Source: Bdellovibrionales bacterium
GTDB taxonomy: Bacteria; Bdellovibrionota; Bdellovibrionia; Bdellovibrionales; JAUICD01
DNA length: 64,000 nucleotides
Reading direction: 5' to 3'
Assembly (NCBI GenBank): GCA_965203275.1
Contig: OZ241865.1
Coordinates: 448,001-512,000, forward strand
Numbering within the stretch: the first letter of the stretch is position 1; each line of letters starts with the position of its first letter. The position numbers and the translations under genes are program-made. The notes beneath the pieces are model-generated. The model was not told where the DNA came from. It saw only the letters and a program-made list of their open reading frames with translations, and ran no database searches. Shown piece after piece: positions 11,016-39,050 of this stretch.

Positions 11016-11372
11016 TGTTTCACTCAAAATGAGCCACACCGCTGGTGTGTTTTTGGGCATTGCTCTTTTTAGACAGCGTATAGCTGTCAGAGCAAACGTC
11101 AGAAGGAAATCTTTTTCCTTAACATTGTGTTAAGAAATGAGGACATCCTCCTTCCTAAAATTGAACAGGCTTTTGAGACAGTTAGCCTTTGATCGACGGC
11201 GAGAGCCGTCGGGCTAACTGTCCAAAAGTAGCCAGAGGCTAGTTCAATTTTAGGGAAACAGAGGTTGGTTTACTTTTAGTGAACGAAAGCCTTCGGCTGG
11301 CAACCAGAAAGTGACCAGAGGTCAGACCACTTTTAGTGAACCAACGGCATGATGCATTTTGAGTGAAAAAAA
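11016..11372. repeat. Modular repeat array: full element 11154-11258 followed by three truncated copies sharing the same end
   Basis: Chain of fragments each ending TTTT(A/GA)GTGAA. Confidence 0.9.
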
Positions 11373-11473
11373 ACAGGCCCATTTTCAGTTTTTTTATTTT
11401 ATAATAAGGTGTATACTTAAATAATAAGGTGTATAATTAAATCATATATGGACAAAAAAAGAGGAGAGTTAGT

Positions 11474-12205
11474 TTGTTAAAATTTATGAAAGAATCTCTT
11501 TATCACAACAAATGGGCTATATTTGCTTTTATTTTAGGATTTATGGGTATTCTTCTCACTCCGTCATTTTTCCTTCATTTAAAATTTGAGGAAAAAAACA
11601 ATATTTATATTATTCCTCCCAAGGAAATGGTACATTTTTCTTTTGGTTTCCAAGAAGCTTTTGCTTCTTTGATGTGGATACGTTTATTGCAAGATATAGA
11701 TATTTGTGAGCAGGGTAAAAAAAAATCTTACAATGTAGGGTCTAGCATTGATGAGATTTTAACAAGTGATATGCCTCCATCAAGATGTCATGAGGGCTGG
11801 GTTTTTCACATGTTAGATCGGATCACTGACTTTTCCCCTCGATTTTTGTATGCTTATGTTCATGGTGGAGTACTATTAAGTATTGTGGTAGATGATCGAG
11901 AAGGAGCTAGACAGATGATGGAAAAGGGACTCAAGGAGTTTCCCGATCATTACAACCTCAATTACAATGCAGCATACCATTATCTTGCTGAAGTCAGAGA
12001 TCCTCAAAGGGCTGCTTACCTGATGAAAAGAACACATGAGCTAGGAGGGCCTTCGTGGCTTTCCTTACTAGCAGCTCGTCTTTATGCTAAAGGAGGCATG
12101 AAGGAGGCAGGCATTACTTTATTAAATGAGCTTATAGAAAATAGCTCTGATCCTGATTTTGTAGAAGCAGCTCAGGAACGGTTAAAAAAGATGATTTTAG
12201 AATAG
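11474..12205 (+). CDS. Membrane-anchored TPR-like protein, possibly PilG-like (Myxococcus pilGHI type)
   Basis: N-terminal TM; ASLMWIRLLQ, LDRITDFSPRF.YAY..GG, MEKGLKEFP, RAAYLMK helical repeat pattern; start may be ATG 11487. Confidence 0.55.
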   Translation: MLKFMKESLYHNKWAIFAFILGFMGILLTPSFFLHLKFEEKNNIYIIPPKEMVHFSFGFQEAFASLMWIRLLQDIDICEQGKKKSYNVGSSIDEILTSDMPPSRCHEGWVFHMLDRITDFSPRFLYAYVHGGVLLSIVVDDREGARQMMEKGLKEFPDHYNLNYNAAYHYLAEVRDPQRAAYLMKRTHELGGPSWLSLLAARLYAKGGMKEAGITLLNELIENSSDPDFVEAAQERLKKMILE

Positions 12206-12254
12206 TTTGTTCTTTATTCTCTCAAGCAAGATAAATTTCTTTTTGATAACTTTT

Positions 12255-12331
12255 GTACCCGTAGCTCAACTGGATAGAGTCCCAGACTACGAATCTGGTG
12301 GTTGCACGTTCGAATCGTGCCGGGTACGCCA
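12255..12331 (+). tRNA. tRNA-Arg (anticodon ACG)
   Basis: GTACCCG acceptor pairs with CGGGTAC, D arm, anticodon arm CCAGA-CTACGAA-TCTGG, T loop TTCGAAT, encoded CCA; 77 nt. Confidence 0.97.
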
Positions 12332-12414
12332 TTTAATATTTAGTTCAAGAAAATAAACAAAAAAAGATAGCTTGTTTCCTTAAAATGGTGTAAAGAAATG
12401 AAGGGGTACTTTTT

Positions 12415-12567
12415 CCGGGATCTGGGATCCGGCAACCCGGGATCTGGGATCCGGCAACCCGGGATCTGGGATCCGGCAACCCGGGATCTGGGATCCGGCA
12501 ACCCGGGATCTGGGATCCGGCAACCCGGGATCTGGGATCCGGCAACCCGGGATCTGGGATCCGGCAA
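12415..12567 (+). repeat. Tandem repeat, 7 x 22 bp CCGGGATCTGGGATCCGGCAAC
   Basis: Identical units counted directly (last one lacks its final base); a higher-order repeat of the heptamer tract. Confidence 0.95.
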
Positions 12568-16737: not shown

Positions 16738-17325
16738 TTTTTAACATTTCACTAAAAGTAAACTGACCTCTGGCCACTTTTGGGGAGCAAGCGGACTGCG
16801 ATAAAGGAACTTTTTCCTTAACATGGTATTTATCCGGGATCTGGGATCTGGCATCTGGCATCCGGGATCTGGGATCTGGGATCTGGGATCCGGGATCCAG
16901 CAACCGGCAAAAAAAGGAAATCTTGTTTCCTTAACATGTAGTTAAGAGACGAGGAGATCCTCCCCTACTCAAAATGCATAATTTTTTGAGGCAATGACCA
17001 TTTTGCCAATGGCGAAAGCCATTGCGGTCATTGCCCAAAAACATGCCAGAGGCATGATGCATTTTGAGTGAAACAACTAACTCCCTACTAAAAGTAAACG
17101 GACTTTTGAGGTTGCCAGCATTTAAGAAGGCGAAAGCCTTCGGCTGGCAACCCAAAAGTGACCAGAGGTCAGTTTACTTTTAGTGAAAATCAAATGAGGC
17201 AATGACCATTTTGTCAATGGCGAAAGCCATTGCGGTCATTGCCCAAAAACATGCCAGAGGCATGATGCATTTTGAGTGAAATGTTAAGGAAAAAGTGTCT
17301 TCTGATGCCGGGTTGCCAGATCCCT
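16738..17325. repeat. Modular repeat array: heptamer tract, full elements 16967-17073 and 17087-17188, truncated copy 17197-17281
   Basis: Same modules and junctions as other arrays. Confidence 0.9.
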
Positions 17326-17392: not shown

Positions 17393-18394
17393 TTATTTCT
17401 TCAGCTTGAGAATGTCATCTTTGGACAAACCTGTCATTGTAGAGATCAATGAAATATTGAGATTTTCTTTCAACATATTTAGTGCTACTTTCTCCATTCC
17501 TTCCTTACGACCTTTCTTCATCCCTTTCTCCATTCCTTTCTCCATTCCTTTCTCCATTCCTTTCTCCATTCCTTTCTCCATTCCTTTCTCCATTCCTTCC
17601 TTACGACCTTTCTTCATCCCTTTCTTCATTCCTTCTTCATAAGCACCCTCTTCTCTGGCTGCTTGATCTTTTCTGTCTCTCTCTTTTACCATTGCAAGCT
17701 CCTGTAATGTCTCATCTTTTGATAATATCCATAAATGCTTTGCTGCCTCTGCCATAATACCTCCCTTGTTTTGAAAATTGGTATACTCCTTTAAATCCAT
17801 ATTACCAGAGTTCTTTAAAAGATAACACCAATCTGCCTTTTTGTCAAATAATTCATGCAACCTTGACTGAAACTTGCCTAATTCCACAATGACAAAACAC
17901 AATCCACGAGACATAATCACTTCTGGTGGTTTTGTCCGACGGATATTGCAGATATGATAGTAATCCTTTATCCCTGCAAATTCTTTTAAATTAGCTGTTG
18001 TAAAAACAAGTGAATACACAGGAAGTAATTGATTAAAATCTTCGCCTTTCTTTATCTGACCAGAATAAGCCCTAGAAGCATAAACTAATATCCGATCTGT
18101 AAAAAACTTTTGACTTGTCGTCTGAACTTCTACATGGACAATCTCTGTATTTTGAAGAACGCCTCTGATCCGTCTTCTTAATTTCACACGCAAATCTAAA
18201 GTAAAGGATTTGTATTCGTCTGGAACTTTATCGGGAAGAAGCTCTGTGTTTAATAATGAAACACCCTCTATCACAGAACCTTTAGGCAAAGGTACAAAAT
18301 TCTCTACCAGTGAAATTAAAAGGTCTTCTCTCTTTTCAAAAAAAGCTTTGAAAATAGCATCTATTGTTAATTGTAATAAAACTCTCTCTGTCAT
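17393..18394 (-). CDS. Rpn-family recombination-promoting nuclease / PD-(D/E)XK putative transposase
   Basis: D.IFKAFF, LDLRV, VHVEVQ, DRILVYASRAYSGQ motifs; C-terminal (GMEK)n 12-bp repeats and ALNML...ISTMTGLS tail; GGAGG upstream. Confidence 0.9.
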   Translation of the reverse strand: MTERVLLQLTIDAIFKAFFEKREDLLISLVENFVPLPKGSVIEGVSLLNTELLPDKVPDEYKSFTLDLRVKLRRRIRGVLQNTEIVHVEVQTTSQKFFTDRILVYASRAYSGQIKKGEDFNQLLPVYSLVFTTANLKEFAGIKDYYHICNIRRTKPPEVIMSRGLCFVIVELGKFQSRLHELFDKKADWCYLLKNSGNMDLKEYTNFQNKGGIMAEAAKHLWILSKDETLQELAMVKERDRKDQAAREEGAYEEGMKKGMKKGRKEGMEKGMEKGMEKGMEKGMEKGMEKGMKKGRKEGMEKVALNMLKENLNISLISTMTGLSKDDILKLKK

Positions 18395-18650: not shown

Positions 18651-19086
18651 TCTCACTAAAAGTAAACCAGCCTCTGGCTGTTTTTGGGCAATCAGCCCGA
18701 CGGCTCTCGCCGTCGATCAAAGGCTGATTGCCTCAAAAATCCGTTTATTTTTAGTAGGAAGAATCCTCTTGTCTCTTTACACGATGTTAAGGAAACAAGA
18801 TGTTTACTTCACGTCGATCAAATGGTCATCGCCTAGTGTTGTTACATGGCAAGCTTCAGAGAAGCTTGCTGTCTGACCACTTTTAGTAAGGAGGATCTCT
18901 TCGTTTTTTGACTACATGTTAAGGAAAACATCCTTCATTTTTTAGACCTACTCGCTCTTGAGACAATAAAAGAAAATTTTCCTTAACATGGTGTCAGAAG
19001 CAAGGAGATTCGCCCTACTCAAAATGAACAAGCTTTTGAGGTGGCCAGCCTTTTACGACGGCGTGAGCCGTCGGGCTAACTGCTCA
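18651..19086. repeat. Modular repeat array: reverse element 18652-18755, fragments, and the 5' part of an element interrupted by the 153-bp array
   Basis: Direct reading of shared modules. Confidence 0.88.
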
Positions 19087-20463
19087 TTACCATTCGCATC
19101 CAGATTTTTTATTTGTAAGCACAGAGTTTCAAAGCCAAATAAGATAAAGGGTTGTAAAAACTAATGATATAAATGGGAAAGAGTCTGGTCTCAGGGCAAT
19201 GATTTTGAAATTTAAGAAATAAATTGAAGATCCAGCTCATTACCATTCGCATCCAGATTTTTTATTTGTAAGCACAGAGTTTCAAAGCCAAATAAGATAA
19301 AGGGTTGTAAAAACTAATGATATAAATGGGAAAGAGTCTGGTCTCAGGGCAATGATTTTGAAATTTAAGAAATAAATTGAAGATCCAGCTCATTACCATT
19401 CGCATCCAGATTTTTTATTTGTAAGCACAGAGTTTCAAAGCCAAATAAGATAAAGGGTTGTAAAAACTAATGATATAAATGGGAAAGAGTCTGGTCTCAG
19501 GGCAATGATTTTGAAATTTAAGAAATAAATTGAAGATCCAGCTCATTACCATTCGCATCCAGATTTTTTATTTGTAAGCACAGAGTTTCAAAGCCAAATA
19601 AGATAAAGGATTGTAAAAACTAATGATATAAATGGGAAAGAGTCTGGTCTCAGGGCAATGATTTTGAAATTTAAGAAATAAATTGAAGATCCAGCTCATT
19701 ACCATTCGCATCCAGATTTTTTATTTGTAAGCACAGAGTTTCAAAGCCAAATAAGATAAAGGGTTGTAAAAACTAATGATATAAATGGGAAAGAGTCTGG
19801 TCTCAGGGCAATGATTTTGAAATTTAAGAAATAAATTGAAGATCCAGCTCATTACCATTCGCATCCAGATTTTTTATTTGTAAGCACAGAGTTTCAAAGC
19901 CAAATAAGATAAAGGGTTGTAAAAACTAATGATATAAATGGGAAAGAGTCTGGTCTCAGGGCAATGATTTTGAAATTTAAGAAATAAATTGAAGATCCAG
20001 CTCATTACCATTCGCATCCAGATTTTTTATTTGTAAGCACAGAGTTTCAAAGCCAAATAAGATAAAGGATTGTAAAAACTAATGATATAAATGGGAAAGA
20101 GTCTGGTCTCAGGGCAATGATTTTGAAATTTAAGAAATAAATTGAAGATCCAGCTCATTACCATTCGCATCCAGATTTTTTATTTGTAAGCACAGAGTTT
20201 CAAAGCCAAATAAGATAAAGGATTGTAAAAACTAATGATATAAATGGGAAAGAGTCTGGTCTCAGGGCAATGATTTTGAAATTTAAGAAATAAATTGAAG
20301 ATCCAGCTCATTACCATTCGCATCCAGATTTTTTATTTGTAAGCACAGAGTTTCAAAGCCAAATAAGATAAAGGATTGTAAAAACTAATGATATAAATGG
20401 GAAAGAGTCTGGTCTCAGGGCAATGATTTTGAAATTTAAGAAATAAATTGAAGATCCAGCTCA
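19082..20463. repeat. Tandem array of 9 x 153-bp near-identical units
   Basis: Unit starts at 19082, 19235, 19388, 19541, 19694, 19847, 20000, 20153, 20306; one G/A polymorphism; terminal GCTCA repeated at 20459-20463. Confidence 0.97.
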
Positions 20464-20545
20464 AAAGTGGCCAGTTCATTTTGAGTGAAACAGAGGTCAG
20501 ACCACTTTTAGTGAAAAAGAAGGTGTGGTTCATTTTGAGTGAAAA
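20459..20545 (+). repeat. 3' part of the interrupted element plus two further truncated element ends
   Basis: Three successive ...AGTGAAA ends of different sequence variants. Confidence 0.85.
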
Positions 20546-20718
20546 AGGTAGGCTTTGACTATTGTCTCTTGAGTTTGCAAGCCAATAGTTTGCTTTGACG
20601 TTGATACTCGATAATAAGCTACATATTGTTTGATATTCAAGTTGTGTCTCCCACCTTGATTTACTTCAAAGTGCAACACAGCTTTAAGAAAGTCAAAAAA
20701 ATACGTAGCTAATTGGTC

Positions 20719-21222
20719 TTATTCTGTAGCTCCGGCCTCTCTTAATAGTTTTTGAATTTCAATATAACCTTCTCGATTAGCATAATATAAAGCCGTATAG
20801 TCACGGTCGTCTTGAAGATTGACTTTGGCTCCGGCCGCTAGCAATAGCTTTACAGCCTCAGTATGGCCGTTATAGCTTGCAAACACTAAAGCCGTATTGC
20901 CATCTTTGTCTTGAAGATTGACGTTCGCACCATATTCTATCAATAACCTTATAATACCTATACGGAAGTTGTTTAAATAACTAAAATAACTAGCTCTAAT
21001 TAAAGCCGTCCAGCCGTCATTTTCTCTTTGATAATTGACGTCCACACCTTTTTCTAGCAATTCCCTCACCGATCTATGGCTACCGAAAACAACGCGATTT
21101 AATAAGTCATTATTGAGTAATTCCCTCTCACTTTGATTTGGCATAAGGCTTTCAGAATAAGCCCATAGAGAATCACTAGAAACAAGCAAAGCAATAAATA
21201 GAATAAAAATATATTTTTTCAT
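20719..21222 (-). CDS. Secreted ankyrin-repeat protein
   Basis: GGAGG then ATG 21222; MKKYIFILFIALLVSSDSLWA signal peptide; GWTALIRAS, GNTALVFAS..GHTEAVKLLLAAGA, YTALYYA repeats. Confidence 0.92.
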   Translation of the reverse strand: MKKYIFILFIALLVSSDSLWAYSESLMPNQSERELLNNDLLNRVVFGSHRSVRELLEKGVDVNYQRENDGWTALIRASYFSYLNNFRIGIIRLLIEYGANVNLQDKDGNTALVFASYNGHTEAVKLLLAAGAKVNLQDDRDYTALYYANREGYIEIQKLLREAGATE

Positions 21223-21233
21223 TTGTACCTCCA

Positions 21234-21271
21234 TTTGATTTTATAACAACATATATCTAAAAAGTCAAGCC
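21234..21271 (-). promoter_or_regulatory. Putative sigma70 promoter TTGACT-N17-TATAAA for the ankyrin gene
   Basis: -35 at 21268-21263, -10 at 21245-21240; near-identical to 18604-18641. Confidence 0.6.
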
Positions 21272-21452: not shown

Positions 21453-21897
21453 ATATCTTGTTTCCTTAACATGGTGTTAAGAAACGAAGAGATCCTCCCC
21501 TACTCAAAGTGAACAGACTTTCTAGGCGATGACCATTTTATCGATGGCGAAAGCCATCGTGGTCATCGCCCAGGGTGTAAGAAGGAACTTTTTCCTTAAC
21601 ATGGTGTTAAGAAAAGAGGAGATCCTCCTTACTAAAAATAAACGGATTTTTGAGGCAATCAGCCTTTGATCGACGGCGTGAGCCGTCGGGCTGATTGCCC
21701 AAAAACAGCCAGAGGTTGGTTTATTTTTAGTGAAACAAATGACCATTTTGCCAATGGCGAAAGCCATTGCGGTCATTGCCAGAAAGTAGCCAGAGGCTAG
21801 ACCACTTTTAGTGAACCAGTGAAACAGGCCACTTTTAGTGAACCAGTGAAACAGGCCACTTTTAGTGAACCAGTGAAACAGACCACTTTTAGTGAAT
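21453..21897 (+). repeat. Modular repeat array: partial element, full element 21631-21735, truncated copy and three 27-bp tandem end fragments
   Basis: CCAGTGAAACAGRCCACTTTTAGTGAA x3 at 21815-21895. Confidence 0.9.
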
Positions 21898-21898
21898 A

Positions 21899-24685: not shown

Positions 24686-25719
24686 CCCGGGATCCGGTAT
24701 CTGGGATCCGGCAGCCGGCAACCCGGCATCAGAAGGAAAACTTTTTCCTTAACATCGTGTTAAAAAACGAGGAGATCCTCCCCTACTCAAAATGAGCGGA
24801 TTTTTTAGATGTTGCCTATTTTGTCAAAGGCGAAAGCCATTGCGGTCATTGCCCAAAAGTGGCCAGAGGCCAGTTCACTTTGAGTGAACCAACGGCATTG
24901 CTCTTTTAATATAATTTTAAAGGCATTTTGTTTCCTTAACATCGTGTAAAGAGACGAGAGGGTCCTTTCTACTAAAAGTGGTCAAGCTTTCTAGGCAATG
25001 ACCATTTTGCCAATGGCGAAAGCCATTGCGGTCATTGCCAAAAAGTAGCCAGAGGCTAGACCACTTTTAGTGAGCCAATGCCCAAAAACAGCCAGAGGCT
25101 GGTTTATTTTTAGTGAAAAAGATGAGAAGGCGAAAGCCTTCGGCTGACAACCCAAAAGTGACCAGAGGTCAGTTTACTTTGAGTGAAAATCAAATAAGAC
25201 AATGACCATTTTGCCAATGGCGAAATAAAAAGTGAAATAAATATCTTATTTCCTTAACATGGTGTTAAGAAACGAAGAGATCCTCCCTACTCAAAGTGAA
25301 CAGGCTTTCTAGGCGATGACTATTTTATCGATGTGAAATAAACATCTTGTTTCCTTAACATGATTTTCATCCGGGATCTGGGATCAGGCAACACGGCATC
25401 AGAAAGGACTTTTTCCTTAACATGGTGTTAAGAAATGAGGACATCCTCCTTCCTAAAATTGAACAAGCTTTTGAGGCGATGACCATTTTATCGATGTGAA
25501 ATAAACATCTTGTTTCCTTAACATGATTTTCATCCGGGATCTGGGATCAGGCAACACGGCATCAGAAAGGACTTTTTCCTTAACATGTGGTTAAAAAACG
25601 AAGATATCCTCCCTACTCAAAGTGAACAGGCTTTCTAGGCGATGACTATTTTATCGATGGCGAAAGCCATCGTGGTCATCGCCAGAAAGTGACCAGAGGT
25701 CAGTTCACTTTGAGTGAAA
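24686..25719 (+). repeat. Largest modular array: heptamers, module A, elements 24785-24888 (chimeric), 24971-25073, 25615-25719, truncated copies and a ~110-bp internal duplication
   Basis: 25311-25423 is repeated at 25474-25586 (offset 163, one mismatch). Confidence 0.9.
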
Positions 25720-27933: not shown

Positions 27934-27995
27934 AACCTTGAAATTATATTAAGGTATTGGTTTTATTAAGAAAATTTATATTTCTATAGAAGCAA

Positions 27996-28825: not shown

Positions 28826-29011
28826 TGGACTCCTTTCTTGTCTTTTAAGATGAATAAAAAATCATATATATTTAAGTTTGTAAACTTTATTTATATCTAT
28901 CGGTTTGACAATTATTAAACTTAAGAGCAAATAACCAATAAATAAGTAGTTATTTAAAAACAAAATAATATAAGCACTCTACAGTTTTAAAATCCATGTT
29001 TCTTATATTCA

Positions 29012-31447
29012 TTAAATAGCCGCTGGGAACTTAGTTGATGGTTTTCTTCTGACTGTAGCGGTCCGTGGTGTCAGCTTAACAGGTTTGGCTTTTTTCTCAA
29101 GGGCAATAGCTAACACTTCATCAATATGCTTAACAGGTATAAAGTTCAGTTTTTGTCTAAACTCCTTTGGAATATCTACTAAGTCTTTTGTATTTTGGAA
29201 AGGGATAATCACGCTTTTTGAGCCATGCCTTAATGCAGCAAGGGCTTTATCTTTTAATCCACCAATAGCTAAAATGCGACCTGTTAAAGTCACCTCACCT
29301 GTCATAGCCACATCACTTCTCACACTTGTTTCTGTAATCAAAGAAATAATAGCAGTAGCAATAGCAATACCAGCTGATGGTCCATCTTTTGAAATAGCAC
29401 CTGCGGGCAAATGAATATGAATTTCATGTTCTCTAAACCATTTGTCAGGTATGCCCAAAGCCTTTGCATTGGCTCTTGTATAAGCCAGTGCAGCTTGTGC
29501 TGATTCTTTCATTATATCTCCTAATTGCCCGGTCAGAGTGATCTTACTTTTGCCCTTCATTTTAAGTGCTTCAATGTATAAAATCTCTCCTCCTACAGAG
29601 GTCCAAGCAAGCCCTGTCACTACACCTATGCGATCTTCGTTTTCCATATCATCTCTGATAAACTTTGCTGGCCCTAAGAATTTCTCTACATTACTAGATT
29701 TAATAATATGCTTTTTATTTTGATTTTCTTCCCCATTAACAACTATTTTAGTGGCAACCTTACGGCAAATGCTCCCTATCTCACGTTCTAAGTTTCTCAA
29801 ACCTGCTTCCCTTGTATAATTAGAGATAATGGTTTGTAATCCATTATCTGTAAAATCTATGTTCTTATCTACAACACCATTAGCTTCTAATTGTTTTTTA
29901 ATAAGATGTTTTTTAGAAATAAATAATTTTTCTTGTTCAGTATATCCAGAAAGATTAATCACCTCCATACGATCTCTTAAAACACGTGGTATATTTTCCA
30001 ACACATTGGCTGTGGCAAGAAACATCACCTTACTTAAATCAAAATTCACATTTAAGTAGTGATCCTTAAAAGTATGATTCTGCTCTGGATCTAAAACTTC
30101 TAAAAGAGCAGCACTGGGATCACCTCTAAAATCGTTTCCAAGTTTATCAATTTCATCTAAAACAAAAACAGGGTTTTTAGAACCTACAGTTTTAAGAGCT
30201 TGTATAATCTTCCCTGGCATAGCTCCCACATACGTACGTCGATGTCCTCTGATCTCAGCTTCATCTTTTATACCACCTAGAGCTACTCGTTCATATTTAC
30301 GCCCCATAGCTTTAGCAATACTTTTTCCAAGCGAAGTTTTCCCAACGCCTGGAGGACCTGCAAAGCATAAAATAGGCCCTTTCATGTCTTTTTTAAGTTG
30401 TCTGACGGCTAAAAACTCTAAAATTCTTTCTTTGATTTTTTCAATACCATAGTGATCTGTATCTAAAATTTCTCGAGCATGCTTTAAATTAAGGTTATCG
30501 ACTGTCTCATGCTTCCAAGGTAGTTCAATACACCAATCTAAATAAGTACGCAGAATAGAATTTTCGCTTGCATCAGGATGTGTTTTAGAGAGTCGATGTA
30601 GCTGTTTGAGACATTCTTTTTCCACATCCTTTGGCATGCCTGCTTGTTTGATATGATCTCTTAATTCCTCAATGTCTTCACCTTTATAATCCATCTCCCC
30701 TAACTCACTTTGAATAGCACGTAGCTGTTCTCTTAAGAAATATTCTTTCTGTGTTTTGTTCATCTCATCTTTGGCTGTATTTTTTATCTTTTCTTGCATG
30801 GCTAAAACTTCTAACTCATTTGTAAGGTATTCTAAGACAATCTTCAGACGAGTCGTAGGATCATCTGTTTCAAGTATTCTTTGGGCATCCGGCACTTTTA
30901 AATTAAGGTTGCTGGCCACAAGATCAGCTGTTCTGCCAGGATGCACGACATCATCTAGCACCAATAAAATATCTGGTGAGAGCATCTTGCCATGTGCAAT
31001 GATTTTTTCTAAAAGGTCTTTGAGGCTTCGAATAAGAGCTTCTGCTTCTAGTTGATCATGATCAGGTATGTGTATTTCTCCTTCTTTGGGGAAACACCGA
31101 ACTTTAACTTCTAAATAAGGATGGTTGTGAATATAAGATGTGATTTGTGCTTTAGAGATACCTTGTATTAGTATTTTGATTCTTCCATCAGGTAATCTAC
31201 GCATTCTTGTGATCATAGCCACTGTTCCTATATTGAATATGGACTCACAAGTAGGATTTTCCTCTGTGATATCTTTTTGAGATGATAAAAAAATCAACCT
31301 ATTACGGGATAATGATTCCTCTACTGCTTTAATAGAAGACTCACGCCCTATAAACAAGGGTAAAATCATATAAGGAAAAACTACGATATCTCTGACCGGT
31401 AATAAGGGCATATTTTCAGAAATTTCTACATTGAGTTCGTCAAACAT
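29012..31447 (-). CDS. lon: ATP-dependent protease La
   Basis: LON N domain, GPPGVGKTS, HRRTYVGAMPG, KDGPSAG catalytic Ser, IGGLKDK. Confidence 0.98.
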   Translation of the reverse strand: MFDELNVEISENMPLLPVRDIVVFPYMILPLFIGRESSIKAVEESLSRNRLIFLSSQKDITEENPTCESIFNIGTVAMITRMRRLPDGRIKILIQGISKAQITSYIHNHPYLEVKVRCFPKEGEIHIPDHDQLEAEALIRSLKDLLEKIIAHGKMLSPDILLVLDDVVHPGRTADLVASNLNLKVPDAQRILETDDPTTRLKIVLEYLTNELEVLAMQEKIKNTAKDEMNKTQKEYFLREQLRAIQSELGEMDYKGEDIEELRDHIKQAGMPKDVEKECLKQLHRLSKTHPDASENSILRTYLDWCIELPWKHETVDNLNLKHAREILDTDHYGIEKIKERILEFLAVRQLKKDMKGPILCFAGPPGVGKTSLGKSIAKAMGRKYERVALGGIKDEAEIRGHRRTYVGAMPGKIIQALKTVGSKNPVFVLDEIDKLGNDFRGDPSAALLEVLDPEQNHTFKDHYLNVNFDLSKVMFLATANVLENIPRVLRDRMEVINLSGYTEQEKLFISKKHLIKKQLEANGVVDKNIDFTDNGLQTIISNYTREAGLRNLEREIGSICRKVATKIVVNGEENQNKKHIIKSSNVEKFLGPAKFIRDDMENEDRIGVVTGLAWTSVGGEILYIEALKMKGKSKITLTGQLGDIMKESAQAALAYTRANAKALGIPDKWFREHEIHIHLPAGAISKDGPSAGIAIATAIISLITETSVRSDVAMTGEVTLTGRILAIGGLKDKALAALRHGSKSVIIPFQNTKDLVDIPKEFRQKLNFIPVKHIDEVLAIALEKKAKPVKLTPRTATVRRKPSTKFPAAI

Positions 31448-32078
31448 ACTTAAACCTTCCTTTCTCTATGGAGTTGTTATCATTTTTTGTTGTACCTCTT
31501 TTAAAATTATTCGGTTCTATTATGAAATGGCTTAAGGGAAAAAAGACCGAAAAATGACTTGATTTCTAACAAATAAACACAAATATTTAACACTAAAAGA
31601 CAGTTTTTAAGACGTAAGATGAATTTCATACCCTCTCAATACATAAAATATATTCTTTTGATTTTTGTGATATGGTTTTTTGTGTAGGTCGCTTCAATTT
31701 TCTGATTCTGTAAGAATGATCACTCTGCGGAGTCTTATGCTTTTTTAGCAAAGAAAAAGTGTCTCATTTTTAAACACTCTCTGAAAAAAAAAGTGTTCAA
31801 AAGGTGATTGTCTAAAAAATTTACATATTTTGATGAAAAAAAATATTTTTTTCTAAAGTTTACGCTCAAAGGACCGATGAGATTATTATTTATTGACACA
31901 AATATAGCAAAATTTTTAAGCAACATAAGTTTTAGCATAAATTCTTACTTTATCAACTTAGATAATTTTAATAAATTAACCCTTTTCAAGGGTGTATTTG
32001 TCACAAGTCAAAAAGGTAAGAAAGAACAATTAAGAGGATCAATTAAATTATTAATAAAAGAATTCAGAGGGGATATTT

Positions 32079-32471
32079 ATGTTTGCTCATTCAAAAGATT
32101 TTTTTTCAAAGGAATTTATAGAAGAATGCCATCAAAGCTTATTAGAACAGAAAACGAAGCTTATGAATAGATCTCGTTCTAACCATGAAGAACTGAGAAG
32201 ACACAGCACGGAGAGAGGAGGGGATGAAACAGATTTGGCAGTTAAAAGTTCGATGGAATCAGGAATTGTGCATAATCAACATCGTTTACGGCACCAGCTT
32301 TTAGAGATAGAAGTCGCTCTATCAAAGATTGCTGAGGGGACTTATGGAATCTGTGAAGAGACGGAAGAACCTATTGAAGTTAAAAGACTTCAGGCTATTC
32401 CTTGGACAAGGTTTAGTATTGAAGGAGCTGAGATTAGAGAGTCTGTTCAAAAGCAATATCATGCAGGATAA
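32079..32471 (+). CDS. TraR/DksA family transcription factor (single Cys)
   Basis: Coiled coil with GDETD tip, ALSKIAEGTYGICEETEEPIEVKRLQAIPW; GAGGGG SD. Confidence 0.88.
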   Translation: MFAHSKDFFSKEFIEECHQSLLEQKTKLMNRSRSNHEELRRHSTERGGDETDLAVKSSMESGIVHNQHRLRHQLLEIEVALSKIAEGTYGICEETEEPIEVKRLQAIPWTRFSIEGAEIRESVQKQYHAG

Positions 32472-32692
32472 AAACCTACCTTGATCATCACAATCAACGT
32501 GAGCAAGACGAAAGAATAGCATCAAATTTCTTGTTGTCTTTGTCTAAAAAACATTTAAAAATTAAATGGTTAGGCTTATCCATTGTATTATGAAATATGA
32601 GTTTTTTTATTTTGAGTCATCTATTTGAGTCATCTATACGATAGCCTACTTAAGACATAAGAACATTTATTCAAGTCAAGTCAAAATGCATT

Positions 32693-34138
32693 TTGAGGAA
32701 AATCATAATGAAAAATTGGTACACTACAAACTTAGGTAAAGTAGAAGGTCCATTTTCCTTATCACAAATAGAACTTAAAATTCAACAAAAAGAAATCTAT
32801 CCAGAAGATTTAATTTATCGCTCCGGAGAAAAAGAATGGATACCTATTAAGGATCGGTGGCAGTTTCAAAAGATCATTCTTAGAAGTCGTATTTCTCATA
32901 ATAAAGACATTCCTAAAAAAGATTGGACTGTTTATCAGAAGTATCTCAAACAGAAAGCAACATCTCCTCTTGCTTTTCAGTATGCTTCTTATAGTACAAA
33001 AGAAGTCATCAAAGCTTTACATAAAGGAGAGATATCTTATTCTGACTGGATTTGGACTGAAGGCATGAAAGAATGGCAAATGATTCGTCATTTACCTCAA
33101 TTCAATCATTTTATATCTCACAAATTTAAAAAACATAAGAAGCCTGTAGATTTAGGACAGGTCAGTGATACAGAATTACGTCAATCAGTGGTTCAAGCAA
33201 AACCTCCATCTTCTATAATATCTTCTTTAATAGACACAGAAAGACCATCTGAAGTTACTAGTTCTAATTTAGCAAAACAATTTGTTGATCTTCGTTTTTA
33301 TAACAAAACACCATTAAGGAAAAATAAAATTGTTATGTCTTTGGCTTCTTTGTTTATTATTGTGGGTTTGGTTATGTTATCTTTTTTTACAGACTCTTCA
33401 CAGCAAGTGCAGAAATTATTATCAGAAAAACCTTTTATCTTAGAATATAATGTTTTACACAATGGCTTAGAAATACATTTTCAATCAAGACAACAAACTG
33501 AAGAGACAATACAATTAAAAATCAAGAATAAAGAAAACCAAATTTTAAGTACCAATAACTTTGAACGCAATGTTTTGATTCGATTAGATAAAAATGGTCA
33601 GGCTATTTTACGTTTAGATCATTTAAGCTTACCAGAGGGTTATTATTATTTTTCAGGTCAAATAGCAGAGGCTTCTTTTAGTCATAGTTTTTTTATTGGA
33701 GAAGATAAAGACAACTTTGCTTATAACTTATCTGAATTTCGTAGAATCAGACAAGAAGAAAAAAAGAAACTTGAAAACATTAAAAAAAAGGTTATGGCTA
33801 AAACTATTCCTCGCATTCCTAAAGGTATGAAGAGTTTTTATGGTCAGATCAGAGAGTTAGAAAAAGGTTATGATCGTTATCATAAAAGTATAGAAGAATG
33901 GAGAATATTTTATTCTTCTTGGGAGGAGGCCTTGCATGAAATTGACTCATTAGATTTAGAAAAGCAATCATTGGATATAGGCTTAGTACAGGAATTGCAA
34001 AACATAGAGCAAGATTTAAAAATGATGAGTCAAAATATGGATCAATCTATAAAAGAACAAAATTTAAAAGAGTTTTCTCTTCTATCTCCACAAGTGGCTG
34101 TCTTTTTAGAGAAAGTCAAAAACCAACAATCATTTTAA
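32693..34138 (+). CDS. GYF_2/DUF4339 domain membrane protein
   Basis: WY......EGPFS, LIYRSGEKEW and WIWTEGMKEW..I..LPQF repeats; central TM helix; start may be ATG 32708. Confidence 0.8.
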   Translation: MRKIIMKNWYTTNLGKVEGPFSLSQIELKIQQKEIYPEDLIYRSGEKEWIPIKDRWQFQKIILRSRISHNKDIPKKDWTVYQKYLKQKATSPLAFQYASYSTKEVIKALHKGEISYSDWIWTEGMKEWQMIRHLPQFNHFISHKFKKHKKPVDLGQVSDTELRQSVVQAKPPSSIISSLIDTERPSEVTSSNLAKQFVDLRFYNKTPLRKNKIVMSLASLFIIVGLVMLSFFTDSSQQVQKLLSEKPFILEYNVLHNGLEIHFQSRQQTEETIQLKIKNKENQILSTNNFERNVLIRLDKNGQAILRLDHLSLPEGYYYFSGQIAEASFSHSFFIGEDKDNFAYNLSEFRRIRQEEKKKLENIKKKVMAKTIPRIPKGMKSFYGQIRELEKGYDRYHKSIEEWRIFYSSWEEALHEIDSLDLEKQSLDIGLVQELQNIEQDLKMMSQNMDQSIKEQNLKEFSLLSPQVAVFLEKVKNQQSF

Positions 34139-34411
34139 AGTTGACTTTGAACACTATGTATAAGGCATTTATAAAGAAACTACAAAAGAAGCACAATAAA
34201 TGCAGGAAGGCTTTTTATGAAATTATGAAATTTCTTATGGATCACAATAATTCATTAGAAAAATCTAAGAAATTTATCTTTCATCAAGTGTGTCTGGAAA
34301 AAAGGAACATATACATCAAAATTCAAGATAGAGATGAAATGAGAATATTTGCAAAGTGAAGAGAGTAGAAAGTTTAAAAATCATTAAATTCAACTCAAAC
34401 AAGATGCAGAG

Positions 34412-36112
34412 ATGTTGTTAGAAATAAAGAAAAGCCTTGCAGAAAGTTTATTGCCATTGTTTCAAGGGACATCTTGGCAAAAAGAAGACATTGAAAAAAT
34501 ACTGACACTGCCAAAACTTTTTTCACACGGGCATTTAGCACTTCCTGTCTTTACACTAGCAAAAGAACTGAAAAAATCACCACAAGAAATAGCTTCTAAA
34601 ATAACTCAAGAAGTTCAAATGCAAAATATCAATGGGGTGACAAACATCAAAGCTATTGGTGGTTTTGTAAATTTTCATTTCTCTAGTAGCTATCTTGCTC
34701 AAATTTTATGTCGATTTGTCTTTAGTAAACCTAACGATCAAACACAACAAAAACCTTCAAAGAAAATCATTATAGAATATTCTTCCCCTAATGTAGCGAA
34801 ACCATTGGGCATAGGTCACCTGAGGGCCACTGTCATTGGGCAAGCACTTTGTCATTTAGCTCACACACAGGGTTTTCAAGTGATTAGATGGAATCATCTT
34901 GGAGATTGGGGTGTGCAGTTTGGTCATTTGGTCCATGCTTATCAAAAATGGCACCATGAGTACTCATTTGAAAAAGAACCTCTCGAGTCCCTCTACAAAT
35001 TATATGTGCGATTTCATAATGAAATGAAAACTCATCCTGAGCTTAAGGACAAAGGAGAAGAGTGCTTTAAAAAACTAGAATCTGGAGATCCTGAAATAAC
35101 TCAGCTTTGGAAATTATTTATCTCTATCACAACAAAAGAACATGAAAAACTTTATAATCTTTTAGATGTTCAATTTGATATTGTCCAAGGAGAGTCTTTT
35201 TATAATGATCAATTAGACGCCACTGTCAAAAGAATTCAAGACGCTGGTTGCCTGCAAGAAAGTCAGGGAGCTTCTGTGGTTTTTCTTAAAAATGGTCCTC
35301 CTTGCATTATCAAAAAATCAGATGGATCTTCAATCTATGCTACGAGAGATATTGCCAGTGCTATCTATCGCCATGAAGTCATCAAAGCAGATAGAATATT
35401 ATATGTTGTAGGGTCTGAACAGTCTCTCCATTTCAAACAAATATTTGAAGTACTCGATCAAATGAAATATGAATGGGCTAAGAACTGTCATCATATTGCC
35501 TTTGGTCTTTACCACTTTAGAGATAGTAAAATGTCAACAAGAACTGGCAATGTGATCTTTATGGAAGATGTTCTTAATGAGGCTATTTCCAGGACTTCAC
35601 ATATCATAGAGACTAAAAACCCTCAAATTTCAAACAAAGCAGAGGTTGCAAAACAAGTGGGTATAGGAGCTGTGATCTTCAATGACCTAATGTGCGACCG
35701 TATCAAAAACATTGATTTTAATTGGTCTAATGTGTTGAACTTTGAGGGGGATAGCGGTCCTTATGTTCAATATTCTCTTGTTCGTTGTCGGAGTCTTCTT
35801 AAAAAATATACAAAAGAAATACTTCCTTATTTTAAACAAAATCTTACAACACAAGAAGAAATGCAAATATTAGTGATGTTAGTTACTTTTTCAGAAATTC
35901 TACAACAAGCATGGAGAACATTTAAGCCTCATATTTTAGCTCAATATGTATTGAAACTATGTCAAGAATTTAGTTCTTTTTATAATAAGCATAGAATTTT
36001 AGGAGAAGATCCGGATATAGAAGCAAGTAGAATGACTCTTGTGTATTGCATTGAACATATTTTAAGTCAGAGTCTTGGTATTTTAGGAGTACCTACTCCT
36101 TCAGAGATGTAA
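34412..36112 (+). CDS. argS: Arginine--tRNA ligase
   Basis: EYSSPNVAKPLGIGHLR, HLGDWG.QFG, KSDG...YATRD, KMSTRTG, FEGDSGPYVQY. Confidence 0.97.
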   Translation: MLLEIKKSLAESLLPLFQGTSWQKEDIEKILTLPKLFSHGHLALPVFTLAKELKKSPQEIASKITQEVQMQNINGVTNIKAIGGFVNFHFSSSYLAQILCRFVFSKPNDQTQQKPSKKIIIEYSSPNVAKPLGIGHLRATVIGQALCHLAHTQGFQVIRWNHLGDWGVQFGHLVHAYQKWHHEYSFEKEPLESLYKLYVRFHNEMKTHPELKDKGEECFKKLESGDPEITQLWKLFISITTKEHEKLYNLLDVQFDIVQGESFYNDQLDATVKRIQDAGCLQESQGASVVFLKNGPPCIIKKSDGSSIYATRDIASAIYRHEVIKADRILYVVGSEQSLHFKQIFEVLDQMKYEWAKNCHHIAFGLYHFRDSKMSTRTGNVIFMEDVLNEAISRTSHIIETKNPQISNKAEVAKQVGIGAVIFNDLMCDRIKNIDFNWSNVLNFEGDSGPYVQYSLVRCRSLLKKYTKEILPYFKQNLTTQEEMQILVMLVTFSEILQQAWRTFKPHILAQYVLKLCQEFSSFYNKHRILGEDPDIEASRMTLVYCIEHILSQSLGILGVPTPSEM

Positions 36113-36120
36113 AATTATTT

Positions 36121-37036
36121 TGGGATCCGGGATCCGGCATCTGGGATCTGGCATCCGGGATCCGGGATCTGGCATCCAAAGGAACTGTTTCCTTAACATA
36201 ATGTTAAGAGACGAAGAGATCCTTTCTACTCAAAGTGAACAAGCTTTTGAGGCGATGACCATTTTGTCAAAGGCGAAAGCCTTTGCGGTCATCGCCCAAA
36301 AGTGACCAGAGGTCAGTTCACTTTGAGTGAAACAAAACGAACTTTTTCCTTAACATCGTGTTAAAAAATGAGGAGATCCTCCCTACTCAAAATGAGCAGT
36401 TTTTTTGCGGCATTGCTCTTTTTAGACAGCGTAAGCTGTCAGAGCAAACATCCGAAGGAAATCTTTTTCCTTAACATGCTGTTAAGAAATGAGGACATCC
36501 TTCTTCCTAAAATTGAACAAGCTTTTGAGGGAGTTAGCCTTTGATCGACGACGATAGCCAAAAGGTGTAAGAAAGAACTTTTTCCTTAACATGGAGTTAA
36601 GGGACGAAGGGATCCTCCCTACTAAAAGTGGTCAAGCTTTCTAGGCAATGACCATTTTGCCAATGGCGAAAGCCATTGCGGTCATTGCCAGAAAGTAGCC
36701 AGAGGCTAGACCACTTTTAGTGAGCCAATGCCCAAAAACAGCCAGAGGCTGGTTTACTTTTAGTGAGACAACTCCTCCAGCCTGCCCCCGCCTCCCACTC
36801 ATAATAATATTTATGTTTTTTGAAAATTACGCAGAATCTAAAAAAAATAAAAAAAACAAAAAAACGAACTTTTTCCTTAACATCGTGTTAAAAAATGAGG
36901 AGATCCTCCCTACTCAAAGTGAACAGGCTTTTGAGACAATGACCACTTTGTCAAAGGCGAAAGCCTTTGCGGTCATTGTCCAAAAGTGGCCAGAGGCCAG
37001 TTCACTTTGAGTGAAACAGACCACTTTGAGTGAAAC
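36121..37036 (+). repeat. Modular array: heptamers, full elements 36228-36332, 36621-36723, 36912-37016, partial copies and module C
   Basis: Begins 8 bp after the argS stop; same modules as other arrays. Confidence 0.9.
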
Positions 37037-37138
37037 AACGCACCGCATTATCAGCATAGAGTAAAGAGAAAATATCTTGTTTTTTTTAACATAGTGTGTT
37101 AAAAGACATCTTTGTTTAACAAGCAAAGAGATGTACAA

Positions 37139-38839
37139 GTGACGAAAAAATATATTTTATCTTATTTATTGTTTATTGTTTTGCTGACTGCCAGTGGTTC
37201 TGTAGGGGGGAGGGCCAGTGGTTCTGTAGGGAGGGGGGCTTGTGCTGAAAGCCTTATGGTACACGGACAACTTGACGGCAGAACTTTAAGAGAGCTTGCT
37301 CCTAGCTCTCAATATATGTTACATAAAGCTTCGTTAATAGCTTATGCTTCTGGGTCTCAAACAGTGAACGCAAAACACATTCTTCTGGCAGCTTTGACGA
37401 GAGTTGAGACTTCAAATAAAAAGCTCAATCGCTTGAATATGCCAGATCCCATAGATAACACTCCACATTTTAATGGTATAGCTCTTGCTTTGAAAAAATA
37501 TATACATATAACTATGGATAGATTTGCTTCTCATTTTAAAGAAATAGAAGGAGTCCATTTAAGAAGATTTCAAGAAGCTCTCTTAAAGAGTTTACATATT
37601 CCGTTAAAGCCGTTACAACCTATTAAGTTTCCTGACTCCATCTTATTTGAGGTAAAAAATAATGATTTACTTGTTCTTCATTTAGGGGATCTAGATTTTA
37701 TACCTACCCTTATATATGATGAAAGTGCGATTGCTTTAATTAAGGTAGCCATTGTTTATACTAGAAGTGTCGCTTCGAGTTATGCTTCGAGGTATATGTA
37801 TGACATGAATGACGATAGACATATAAATTACAATAGAGAAGACAATTTCTATCCCTTACCAGTAACTCCAGAGTATTTCTTTCTTGCACTCCGTGGCAGA
37901 TATAGAAGAAATTCCTTTCTTGACATAGAGACACAAAAACTTCATGAACTTGTAGGGGATATATTTTTTGATATAGGAGTAGGAATAAGTTATTATTTTT
38001 TTGAGGACTTAGGGAGGATGGTGGCAAATGAACACAAACCTCTTATATTAAGTGCATTAAAGAAAGTAGATGAAGCAGTACAATTAGCTCTTAAGAAGGG
38101 TAGTATAAAAGAGGCAGCAGAGCAATTAGGCTTAACGTATAAAACTTTAAAAGGATGGGTTCTTCAAGATCCAGAAGCAAGTCATCAGCTAGGCCATCAA
38201 ACAAAAGAAGGTGAAGAAAAGGCAATACTTAGTCGCAAGTTAGAAGATCTCTTTGCAGGTCATCAGGAAGGTTTAACTTTAGAGCAGATAAAGGCTGGAA
38301 TATCAGAGTTTGCTAACATGTCAAATCAGACAATTTATAAAAGACTAAGAGAAAATGGATATGAAACTCAAGGAAAAGGAATCGGTCGATTTGGTTTATG
38401 GAATCATCAAGGCCATCAAACAAGAGGAAAGGCAAAACTTCGTCGCAAACTAGAAGCTCTCTTTGCAGGTCATCAGGAAGGTTTAACTTTAGAGCAGATA
38501 AAGGCTGGGATAAGAGAATTCGCTAACATGTCAAATTGGATCATTGAAAGAAGACTAATGGAAAATGGATATGAACGTCAAGGAAATAATCGGTTTGCTT
38601 TACGGGATCAGCAACAAGGCCATCAAACAAAAAAAGGTGAAGAAAAGGCAATACTTCGTCGCAAGTTAGAAGATCTCTTTGCAAATCATCAGGAAGGTTT
38701 AACTTTCGAGCAGATAAAGGCTGGAATATCAGAGTTCGCTAACATATCACGGGCGACAATTTATAAAAGACTAATGGAAAATGGATATGAGGCTCAAGGA
38801 CACGGTACGGTTGCTTTATGGTATCCGCAAGGCCATTAA
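37139..38839 (+). CDS. Hypothetical secreted protein: Clp-N-like repeats, HTH and three tandem winged-helix-like repeats
   Basis: GTG 37139 gives MTKKYILSYLLFIVLLTA signal-like N-terminus; KASLIA......VNAKHILLAAL; SIKEAAEQLGLTYKTLKGWV; 3 x ~65-70 aa RKLE.LFA.HQEGLT.EQIKAGI.EFAN.S...I..RL.ENGYE. Confidence 0.75.
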   Translation: MTKKYILSYLLFIVLLTASGSVGGRASGSVGRGACAESLMVHGQLDGRTLRELAPSSQYMLHKASLIAYASGSQTVNAKHILLAALTRVETSNKKLNRLNMPDPIDNTPHFNGIALALKKYIHITMDRFASHFKEIEGVHLRRFQEALLKSLHIPLKPLQPIKFPDSILFEVKNNDLLVLHLGDLDFIPTLIYDESAIALIKVAIVYTRSVASSYASRYMYDMNDDRHINYNREDNFYPLPVTPEYFFLALRGRYRRNSFLDIETQKLHELVGDIFFDIGVGISYYFFEDLGRMVANEHKPLILSALKKVDEAVQLALKKGSIKEAAEQLGLTYKTLKGWVLQDPEASHQLGHQTKEGEEKAILSRKLEDLFAGHQEGLTLEQIKAGISEFANMSNQTIYKRLRENGYETQGKGIGRFGLWNHQGHQTRGKAKLRRKLEALFAGHQEGLTLEQIKAGIREFANMSNWIIERRLMENGYERQGNNRFALRDQQQGHQTKKGEEKAILRRKLEDLFANHQEGLTFEQIKAGISEFANISRATIYKRLMENGYEAQGHGTVALWYPQGH

Positions 38840-38841
38840 CC

Positions 38842-39050
38842 CCAAAAAGATAAAGGTTTGTAAAAGCTAATGATATGAATGGGAAAGAGTCTGGTCTTAG
38901 GGCAATGATTTTGAAATTTAAGAAATAAATTGAAGATCCAGCTCAAAAGTAGCCAGAGGCTAGTTGACTTTTAGTGAAAAAGATAAGAAGGCGGTAGCCT
39001 TCAGCTGGCAACCAGAAAGTGACCAGAGGTCAGGCCACTTTTAGGGAAAC
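38842..39050 (+). repeat. Diverged right-hand ~100 bp of the 153-bp unit joined to two truncated element ends
   Basis: 38842-38945 matches the unit with a few substitutions and the same GATCCAGCTCA-AAAGT junction as 20453-20468. Confidence 0.88.

Follow-up and report, generated by a model that had tools for sequence, protein, structure and literature searches.

Chains of hairpin-repeat fragments in a Bdellovibrionales genome as probable halves of older copies split by nested insertion

Along a 64-kb stretch of a Bdellovibrionales genome (the window), full copies of a hairpin repeat are accompanied by strings of fragments that differ in length and share one end. How do such chains arise? The first-pass annotation suggested that they may be truncated new copies appended one after another at the end of the previous copy, and all seven chains that it gave as examples were found at their positions, together with the short stubs that precede the reverse copies at 6481, 10245 and 60241. 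The recurrent junction words lie exactly at 25070/36720, 17183/25183, 25113/38974 and 11336/24884, with 7, 16, 34 and 4 genome occurrences, respectively. At 20459 and 38941 the chains follow a 153-bp unit and not, as described, a full element. Between 11000 and 39100 the window contains 11 full, 20 right-end, 11 left-end and 4 internal pieces (Table 1). The chains are unlikely to be an assembly artefact: public-run contigs join stubs to unique flank (X3 20491-20624 with 0 differences, X3 37008-37363, X1 and X3 from 21852, and X1 and X3 39004-39300), and read depth on the repeats is ~100-200x unique bins, one run being possibly the source sample. Runs X1 and X3 differ by a few SNPs; a comparison of four runs over 20466-39300, in which repeat joins predominated, yielded no usable empty orthologous site.

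Table 1. Repeat copies, pieces and associated units in the 64-kb window; model positions refer to the 143-nt repeat.
Position	Strand	Feature	Pieces and details
6481..6569	-	Reverse copy, internally deleted, with short distal stub	
10245..10407	-	Full reverse copy and 17-nt right-end stub	
11067..11095	+	Long-stem remnant of host copy, left side joined to inverted right end	model 75-105
11096..11114	+	Purine-rich leader of incoming copy, 19 nt	junction class at model position 105
11115..11256	+	Full 143-nt hairpin repeat	
11259..11366	+	Three right-end pieces, stem allele different in each	11259-11282 (model 120-143), 11284-11339 (85-143), 11346-11366 (124-143)
16927..17279	+	Full copy, right-end pieces, then inverted 5' stub	right-end pieces model 37-143 and 61-143
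18979..19077	+	Left half of split host copy	stem allele that of right half 20462-20488
19082..20463	+	153-bp unit, unstructured, nine tandem copies	inside host near model 107-110
20462..20542	+	Right half of host split by 153-bp unit, plus two right-end stubs	20462-20488 (model 110-143 with small internal deletion); stubs 20491-20514, 20521-20542
21462..21570	+	Left-end piece, then 21-nt leader	model 1-109
21592..21733	+	Full copy; reference for searches and folding	
21738..21896	+	Right-end piece and 27-bp tandem	21738-21814 (model 67-143); tandem x3.5 at 21802-21896, 98% match
24745..25717	+	Array: mosaic full copy, internal piece, full copy, right-end pieces, internal piece, left-end pieces with heptamer runs, full copy	full 24932-25073; right-end 25076-25116, 25125-25186; left-end 25250-25331, 25413-25489, upstream of full 25576-25717
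36189..36766	+	Array: full copy, left-end pieces, full copy, right-end piece	left-end 36346-36447, 36467-36554; full 36582-36723; right-end 36726-36766
36873..37033	+	Full copy and 17-nt right-end stub	stub 37017-37033
38842..39047	+	Partial 153-bp unit, then right-end pieces	38944-38977 (model 110-143), 38984-39047 (77-143)
60241..60285	-	Reverse right-end piece and 7-nt stub	

The repeat is a three-armed hairpin of 143 nt that makes up 6.4% of the genome (G000), where 698 full copies, 641 right-end, 479 left-end and 391 internal pieces were counted; only 14 of 696 full copies lie within crude ORFs of at least 150 aa, repeat-rich ORFs being excluded. For the 10 commonest terminal 14-mers, 1258 occurrences were counted genome-wide and 34 of them within the window, compared with 0-1 in three genome shuffles, so the shared ends of the fragments are not due to chance. 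Its core has two unlike ends, and the main stem carries CTAC on its 5' side in the consensus, GTAG thus lying 3' of it on the other strand. The stem alleles covary, which implies selection on the fold for copying. Tetraloops are of the form GNYA in 209 of 569 cases; as the loop preference is GNNA for DNA and GNRA for RNA, a DNA fold fits better. The two strands fold about equally well and no orientation bias with respect to replication was seen (194 + and 192 - copies over 200-1600 kb), so neither property supports the single-stranded step, which is putative.

Among the genomes compared, the repeat is confined to this genome and its sister G001, which has the same array architecture, with long purine-rich leaders, in the 800 of 2900 kb read. 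G004 has 7 copies, all on three small contigs; as a second rplN on one of these contigs is 98% identical to that of the sister, the copies are likely contamination. Rfam, plasmids and phages gave no match to the repeat, nor did a pattern search of viral and metagenome contigs, and a literature search, with most subscription papers outside its reach, found no description of the family. The idea that Rpn and four-helix (PF05635) genes track the repeat was dropped, given the likely contamination in G004 and the 16 PF04754 matches of the element-free genome G003; the four-helix loci of G004 have no element ends in the flanks examined.

Genome-wide, 1177 left and 1339 right ends of the repeat are intact, so both ends are conserved, where one sharp and one smeared end had been expected. 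The cut side is discrete: 252 of 479 right-hand junctions, or about half, fall at model 118-124, and the main breakpoint is the loop of a small hairpin on the 3' side. These results largely agree with the outcome named in advance as refuting appended truncations. Furthermore, there is a mirror class that the first-pass annotation had left unremarked, in which the left end is preserved and the right side cut off, upstream of full copies. Arrays overall run from left pieces through the full copy to right pieces, the neighbour orders being full-right (248), right-right (164), left-full (157) and left-left (70), and the reverse orders right-full and full-left being rare (29 each). This genome-wide order bears out the view of the arrays as polar records of serial events, and the recurrence of the junction words across the genome supports the recopying of composites also proposed there.

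The pieces on the two sides are paired. In 38 of 88 arrays the left and right pieces closest to the full copy carry matching stem alleles, compared with 12.6 +/- 3.2 after permutation (maximum 25 of 5000), whereas the enclosed full copy shares the flanking allele in 2 of 90. With duplicates removed, 31 of 76 distinct triples match (11.3 +/- 3.0 expected, or 13.9 +/- 3.0 when permuted within junction class), and for 61 of 102 distinct pairs (38.9 +/- 3.7 expected) the left and right breakpoints lie -8 to +18 nt apart. Where several pieces stand on each side, inner-inner matches (6/11) and outer-last matches (4/12) were found and crossed pairings were not (0/15 and 0/9); in a perfect triple nest at 2079695-2080379 of the genome all three left/right pairs match. 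A second passenger, the 153-bp unit, is flanked by both repeat halves at 15 of 18 loci. Inner copies include fewer mosaics (1/88 vs 36/352) and have a smaller mean distance to the nearest copy (2.0 vs 3.5), and hence look younger. This last-in-first-out pairing argues for growth from inside, the stub adjoining the full copy being the latest host, and against fragments as truncated copies appended at a previous end. We estimate a probability of about 0.68 that the fragment chains are left and right halves of older 143-nt copies split by new full copies inserting inside them. Many of the chains, though real, are most likely right-hand halves whose matching left halves lie upstream in mirror order.

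The match is partial: 45 of 76 distinct triples are discordant, as are both left-full-right triples that could be tested in the window (21462, 36467), and a same-strand piece directly upstream is absent in 102 of 248 full-plus-stub arrays. The ~60% of unmatched triples imply that subsequent recopying or one-ended joining is at work too. Loss of the left half by collapse accounts for few of the upstream-less arrays, since mosaics that match the stub make up only 6 of 141, and co-transfer of a full copy with its stub predicts a last-stub match, which 2 of 15 cases show. Distal stubs have no measurable excess of decay over proximal ones (0.50 vs 0.45 mismatches).

The junctions define the incoming unit as the core with a purine-rich 5' leader, mostly of 9-25 nt, and a 3' trailer of 2-8 nt, and insertions end no more than a few bases from the termini of the element itself. 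Whole copies with leader and trailer were found at empty/filled sites in four-helix genes, at a gene start and in a second hairpin repeat; in the pairs read, the target loses 0-30 nt, there is no exact duplication, and the A-C-rich trailer is absent from the empty sites. Nested leaders share at least 15 nt with a leader in non-element context in 124 of 188 cases (controls 2-8). Identical leaders recur at unrelated targets, and for this reason the idea that linkers are error-prone target copies was set aside. Identical trailers likewise follow full copies at unrelated targets, and this constancy assigns the junction to the end of the copy upstream; the linker is repeated past the stub in only 6 of 91. 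Truncation start points are discrete, each with its specific linker, and junctions often combine 1-4 nt of shared sequence with a variable leader. In 60 right-junction classes sequence resumes at 15 different dinucleotides, with a CA core in 10 classes, the main hot spot among them. Unpaired bases show no enrichment at left junctions (85/355, about 32% expected), and for 131 right ends the adjoining sequence is an inverted 5' stub, in most cases without its remainder alongside.

In the nested-insertion reading, the moving species would be single-stranded and folded, probably DNA, would take along a short piece of donor flank and would be joined to targets able to form hairpins by way of matches that are short or imperfect. 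The newest intact copy would then be the next target, and the stub nearest a full copy would mark its latest host. Composites may afterwards undergo recopying and reshuffling through recombination between copies, and a few stubs may multiply by slippage, the likely local origin of the 27-bp tandem in Table 1. That this amounts to small-DNA mobility without a reverse transcriptase (RT) or a known HUH, DDE or IS110 enzyme, in which a folded single-stranded unit uses its former flanks as an address, homes into the hairpin loops of older copies, gains purine-rich bases at the 5' junction and leaves a last-in-first-out record of hosts, is possible but unlikely.

For the RT or HUH route put forward earlier, no RT, Y1 or Y2 HUH transposase was found above cut-off in the genome, which is 90% complete and was covered by single-family searches and by comparison of 64 of ~1900 ORFs with Pfam. 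RVT_1 gave 0 candidates at E 0.1, Y1_Tnp, including the RAYT class, 0 matches with 6 candidates scored, and Y2_Tnp nothing beyond a match below threshold (E 0.11), in an ORF that belongs to no Pfam family. The same genome yielded no Zn_Tnp_IS91 zinc domain, one sub-threshold match only for relaxase PF03432, and nothing above cut-off for IS110, AEP primase or Y-family polymerase. In the sister genome there are genes for RTs of the group II intron type and for one Y1 transposase; tblastn with RT proteins of G001 and G002 and the Y1 of G001 found no match in G000. One GIY-YIG match lies in a 653-aa frame, likewise in relatives, and a TnpB-domain match lies inside a 1325-aa ORF adjoining cas1-cas2. 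A lone casposase was ruled out, since the Cas1 matches adjoin other cas-like genes. Two tyrosine recombinases, IS256, a DDE_1 element, resolvases and HNH genes are also present.

These searches bear on a reading that dispenses with a dedicated mobiliser, in which extruded hairpins break, for example through Rpn nucleases, and template-switching repair with RecA-type conversion copies another repeat in. The genome has RecA and MutS as well as 14 PF12784 and 16 PF04754 Rpn-type matches, the missing canonical enzyme, the mosaic alleles and the imperfect junctions would all fit, and RpnA, according to PMC5350276, cuts non-specifically and leaves primers for template switching. We nevertheless consider this reading improbable, because plain template switching leaves unexplained why units stop near the element's own ends, the covarying stems imply a fold selected for copying, and element-free G003 has PF04754 matches too. 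If anything less probable is the dominance of one-ended joins, in which the right end of a full copy attacks a preferred site within a neighbour, deleting what lies between, left ends do likewise upstream, and most stubs are what remains of the neighbours. The arrays lacking an upstream half, the unmatched triples and the right ends at inverted 5' stubs would be explained, but the last-in-first-out allele matching, the coupled left and right breakpoints and the clean insertions in single-gene targets would not be predicted; one-ended joins may, however, operate beside nesting. Addition of 5'-truncated new copies at a previous 3' end, by target-primed reverse transcription or a rolling-circle HUH transposase, is highly improbable: sharp right ends, polar chains, retroelement-like junctions with short shared sequence and variable leader, missing upstream halves and the enzymes of the sister genome are in its favour, but it predicts neither the 479 left-end pieces nor their pairing, and the discrete start points with their own linkers, the trailers shared across unrelated targets, the rarely repeated linker and the lack in G000 of RT, Y1, Y2, the IS91 zinc domain and any tblastn match to the sister's RT and Y1 speak against it.

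A fixed end with variable truncation is thus by itself no sign of reverse transcription. The mechanism by which REP-like repeats spread is still unresolved (PMC8266576). The present family offers ~500 right-hand and ~370 left-hand readable junctions, and its allele-tagged halves and multi-level nests allow the order and shape of insertions to be read from one genome. Since 6.4% of a small genome is occupied without the usual mobilisers, an unrecognised enzyme or host repair must do the work.

Target-primed retroelements, whether non-LTR or group II intron-like, have a sharp 3' end and short shared sequence at their junctions, as the repeat does; however, no RT was found, the 5' truncation smear and exact target duplication are absent, and the fragments are best explained as host halves. 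Nannocystis exedens reportedly has msDNA-like repeats, which the repeat may resemble as a long hairpin enclosed by an inverted repeat; the shape fits retron msDNA loosely, with no invariant G that could be the conserved branching G seen by eye among the alleles and no RT found. From a miniature IS200/IS605-derived element, with its Y1 TnpA, a fixed target motif on the left and no loss of target, the repeat differs in that Y1 was not found, leaders vary and 0-30 nt of target are lost. Helitrons are grouped with IS91/ISCR for the rolling-circle features common to the repeat. According to PMC13181058, IS91/ISCR elements also lack target duplication and have one sharper end with donor flank at the other, but no Y2 transposase was found here and their fixed target tetranucleotide is absent from the empty sites. 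The A-C-rich trailer instead arrives with the donor, the carried flank measures tens of bases, and target bases are often lost.

Like MITEs, as treated in PMC3184786, the family is a short, non-coding, high-copy mobile repeat tied to genome rearrangement; unlike the classical MITE with terminal inverted repeats and target duplications described there, its core ends are unlike and exact duplication is absent, and the inverted 5' stub abuts 131 right ends and not the rest. The family is kin to the selfish palindromic repeats, its mobilising enzyme not found, and with REP, BIME and REPIN sequences it shares the form of a high-copy extragenic palindromic repeat in mosaic arrays. Its 143-nt three-way fold contrasts with the 20-50 nt REP hairpin given in PMC8266576 and PMC3116915. 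It differs further from the REP/RAYT system, since it lacks GTAG at the 5' foot, RAYT was not found in the genome and no fixed CT or CA junction is present, and since it has carried flanks and multi-level nests.

When the repeat regions of the source genome (a single contig of 2.57 Mb, 90% complete) were tiled with 211 representative copies, we obtained 2209 pieces, which together make up 163 kb, equal to 6.4% of its length. The window spans positions 448001-512000 of this contig. Altogether, 15.9% of the genome is covered by 16-mers occurring at least five times. Among the matches listed by a pattern scan of named genomes, a Bdellovibrionales MAG was the only one. The repeat core is about 143 nt long, has two conserved ends that are unlike each other (639 end-to-end spans, 564 of them distinct), and folds into two small 5' hairpins followed by a three-way junction (z about -9 to -12). 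Its stems covary. P1, the closing stem, has nine common alleles, and among 675 full copies 584 have mutually compatible P1 arms, so that it can be used as a tag assigning left pieces, which keep the left end, to right pieces, which keep the right one. GNYA makes up 209 of the 569 GNNA loops, a share that, from general knowledge of loop stability, points to folded DNA over RNA; repeat orientation in this genome has no bias with respect to replication.

The fragment chains, short right-end stubs and shared junctions reported in the window by the first-pass annotation were all recovered there, the chains at 20459 and 38941 coming after a 153-bp unit and not after a full copy. In the genome the ten most frequent terminal 14-mers are found 1258 times, compared with 0-1 times in shuffles, and several stubs joined to unique flanks are also found in public contigs. 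The annotation had suggested that the chains may record serial addition of truncated copies at the end of the previous copy, through target-primed reverse transcription or a rolling-circle HUH element, which predicts one sharp and one smeared end genome-wide. The census (698 full copies, 641 pieces with just the right end, 479 with just the left end and 391 internal ones) goes against this prediction, since both ends are conserved and cut points are discrete, with 252 of 479 right-hand junctions at model positions 118-124, round the P3 loop. Right-hand junctions lie at most one base from an unpaired position in 273 of 455 cases (32% expected), or 53 of 112 with each distinct type counted once, an enrichment absent from left-hand junctions (85/355). 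Ten of 60 right-junction classes, the hot spot among them, share CA. The commonest of the 132 short (14-19 nt) left-end pieces lead into heptamer arrays, and 131 further right ends adjoin an inverted 5' stub whose breakpoint is the first-hairpin loop.

If full copies had been inserted into older ones, the pieces before and after them should carry complementary P1 arms. Of 88 arrays, 38 have such arms on the two sides of the full copy, when permutation gives 12.6 ± 3.2, with a maximum of 25 in 5000; the full copy and the stub after it match in only 2 of 90. With duplicates collapsed, 31 of 76 triples of left piece, full copy and right piece match, when 11.3 ± 3.0 are expected, or 13.9 ± 3.0 within junction class (maximum 27 in 20000). 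Arrays with several pieces on each side pair in last-in-first-out order (inner-inner 6/11, outer-last 4/12, crossed 0/15 and 0/9), and in one triple nest three successive hosts are all correctly paired, one of them also in P2. Left and right breakpoints are coupled: of 102 distinct pairs, 61 lie -8 to +18 nt apart, when 38.9 ± 3.7 would be expected, and so do 20 of the 33 pairs outside the hot spot (9.6 expected). An independent example of nesting is provided by the 153-bp unit, found between both repeat halves at 15 of 18 loci; the halves around it in the window have matching alleles. Inner copies look younger, and slightly more decay is seen in outer left halves than in inner left halves (0.76 versus 0.22 mismatches; n=38 and 27). 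We propose that a new full copy would land inside an older copy, so that arrays would grow from inside. Serial growth is retained from the earlier account, as is the strongly polar order of neighbours (full-right 248, right-right 164, left-full 157 and left-left 70, against 29 each for right-full and full-left); the site of growth is moved from the end to the interior by the last-in-first-out pairing.

Several results stand against simple nesting. Matching fails in about 60% of triples, the two testable ones of the window among them, and of 248 full-plus-stub arrays 102 lack a piece immediately upstream. Few of the latter are accounted for by left-half collapse (6/141) or by co-transfer of composites (last stub matching in 2/15). 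Decay is no further advanced in distal than in proximal stubs. Since cores that are nearly identical turn up with similar junctions in hosts that differ in allele, we read the unmatched triples as later recopying and flank exchange, with one-ended joins possibly behind some of them. Of 348 stubs compared with the preceding unit, only 17 share its allele, when about 14% would be expected; this scarcity may reflect deletion of identical neighbours.

A candidate empty site was found elsewhere in the genome for 98 of 457 end-to-end blocks, and because many of these are spurious we based the insertion structure on the clear cases among the matches listed, whose targets are four-helix genes, one gene start, promoter regions and another hairpin repeat. 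In these the whole core was inserted with a 7-28 nt 5' leader and a 3-10 nt 3' trailer, with loss of 0-30 nt of target and no exact duplication. Genome-wide, leaders are mostly 7-25 nt and trailers mostly 0-9 nt, leader purine content at -15 to -6 is 70-82%, and in 6 of 91 cases the linker at a piece junction appears again behind the next stub. Leaders were likely brought along from the donor site, because of 188 nested leaders 124 have 15 nt or more in common with one found in a non-element context (2-8 in controls), and in some the natural terminus of a heptamer array is part of the leader.

Positions of repeat elements and of other features (window coordinates unless marked; G000, source genome)
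Feature	Position	Remarks
P1 closing stem	model 40-53 with 129-142	three-way junction of 143-nt repeat
P2		long hairpin of three-way junction
P3	model 121-123 (3-nt loop)	short hairpin of three-way junction
Triple nest	G000 2079695-2080379
Repeat halves around 153-bp unit	18979-19077 / 20462-20488
153-bp unit	19082-20463	nine tandem copies; unstructured, AT-rich; 18 loci genome-wide
27-bp triplet	21802-21896	98% identical; best read as slippage
Second, longer hairpin repeat family	6700-6830 and many loci	commonly a target, with invasion of both strands often seen
22-bp tandem	12415-12567	perfect, x7; derived from heptamer
53-bp tandem	27759-27933	x3.3
Rpn-type PD-(D/E)XK gene	17393-18394 (-)	12-nt repeat tail
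Four-helix bundle (PF05635) gene	24157-24745	flanked by heptamer arrays
575-aa ORF	37112-38839	family of 7-10 members; signal-peptide-like start; 210-216 bp internal repeats match helix-turn-helix models
CRISPR array (L150)	G000 369400-370480	143-nt repeat copies at array end, one within a CRISPR repeat; some spacers present three times
cas loci (four, separate)	G000 238802-244554; 370504-376815; 1990534-1994921; 2268955-2278444	cas1 apparently split at 2.27 Mb, short at 0.24 Mb

The 153-bp unit lies nearly always near position 107-110 of the repeat, as a passenger restricted to one target site. Heptamer arrays are mostly oriented as the repeat (138 same, 24 opposite), and several copies of the four-helix cassette are interrupted by it; PF05635 matches number 14 in the source genome and 19 in each of the two relatives whose assemblies contain the repeat.

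These relatives, the sister genome G001 and G004, are with the source the only 3 of 301 genomes of the order in which the repeat was found. The seven G004 copies are all on small contigs, and those bearing them (C1, C4 and C11; L004, L008 and L116) are likely contamination, C11 having a second rplN 98% identical to that of G001. In 800 kb of G001, 29 of 47 full copies have a D-ACAG trailer; a left half lies upstream of 16 of 109 left ends, and, in a pool of 48 loci, 10 of the 67 right ends have a stub after them. One recurrent G001 target (loci L054-L093) has 17 different leaders of 11-50 nt in front of the left end (A 49%, G 36%, C 3%), most with a second match no longer than in shuffles, and these may be stacks of successive leaders.

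Profile searches of the source genome gave nothing above cut-off for RT, Y1, Y2, the IS91 zinc domain, IS110, relaxase, AEP or Y-family polymerase. Formation of the arrays may need neither RT nor HUH. The sister genome encodes three RTs, two of them of group II intron type, and a single Y1 transposase; none of these found a match in the source genome. RecA and MutS are present there. Cas1 was considered as mobiliser; its matches all sit in cas loci. Rpn nucleases are abundant (about 30 Rpn-type matches), and one family has a repeat piece at most 400 nt downstream in 14 of 14 members (23% background), an association weakened by the fact that G003, a relative free of the repeat, is equally rich in PF04754. 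The mobiliser may be a divergent enzyme, one since lost, or one on an unassembled replicon, possibilities left by a Pfam scan covering 64 ORFs.

A literature search retrieved no description of this family. The repeat lacks the defining features of target-primed retroelements and those of TIR MITEs (PMC3184786). With IS91 (PMC13181058) it has in common flank carriage and the absence of duplication, and it departs from the characters that define that element. It likewise departs from those defining REP, BIME and REPIN repeats (PMC8266576, PMC3116915), yet behaves like these repeats, and REPINs inserted into or beside REPINs are mentioned in PMC3116915.
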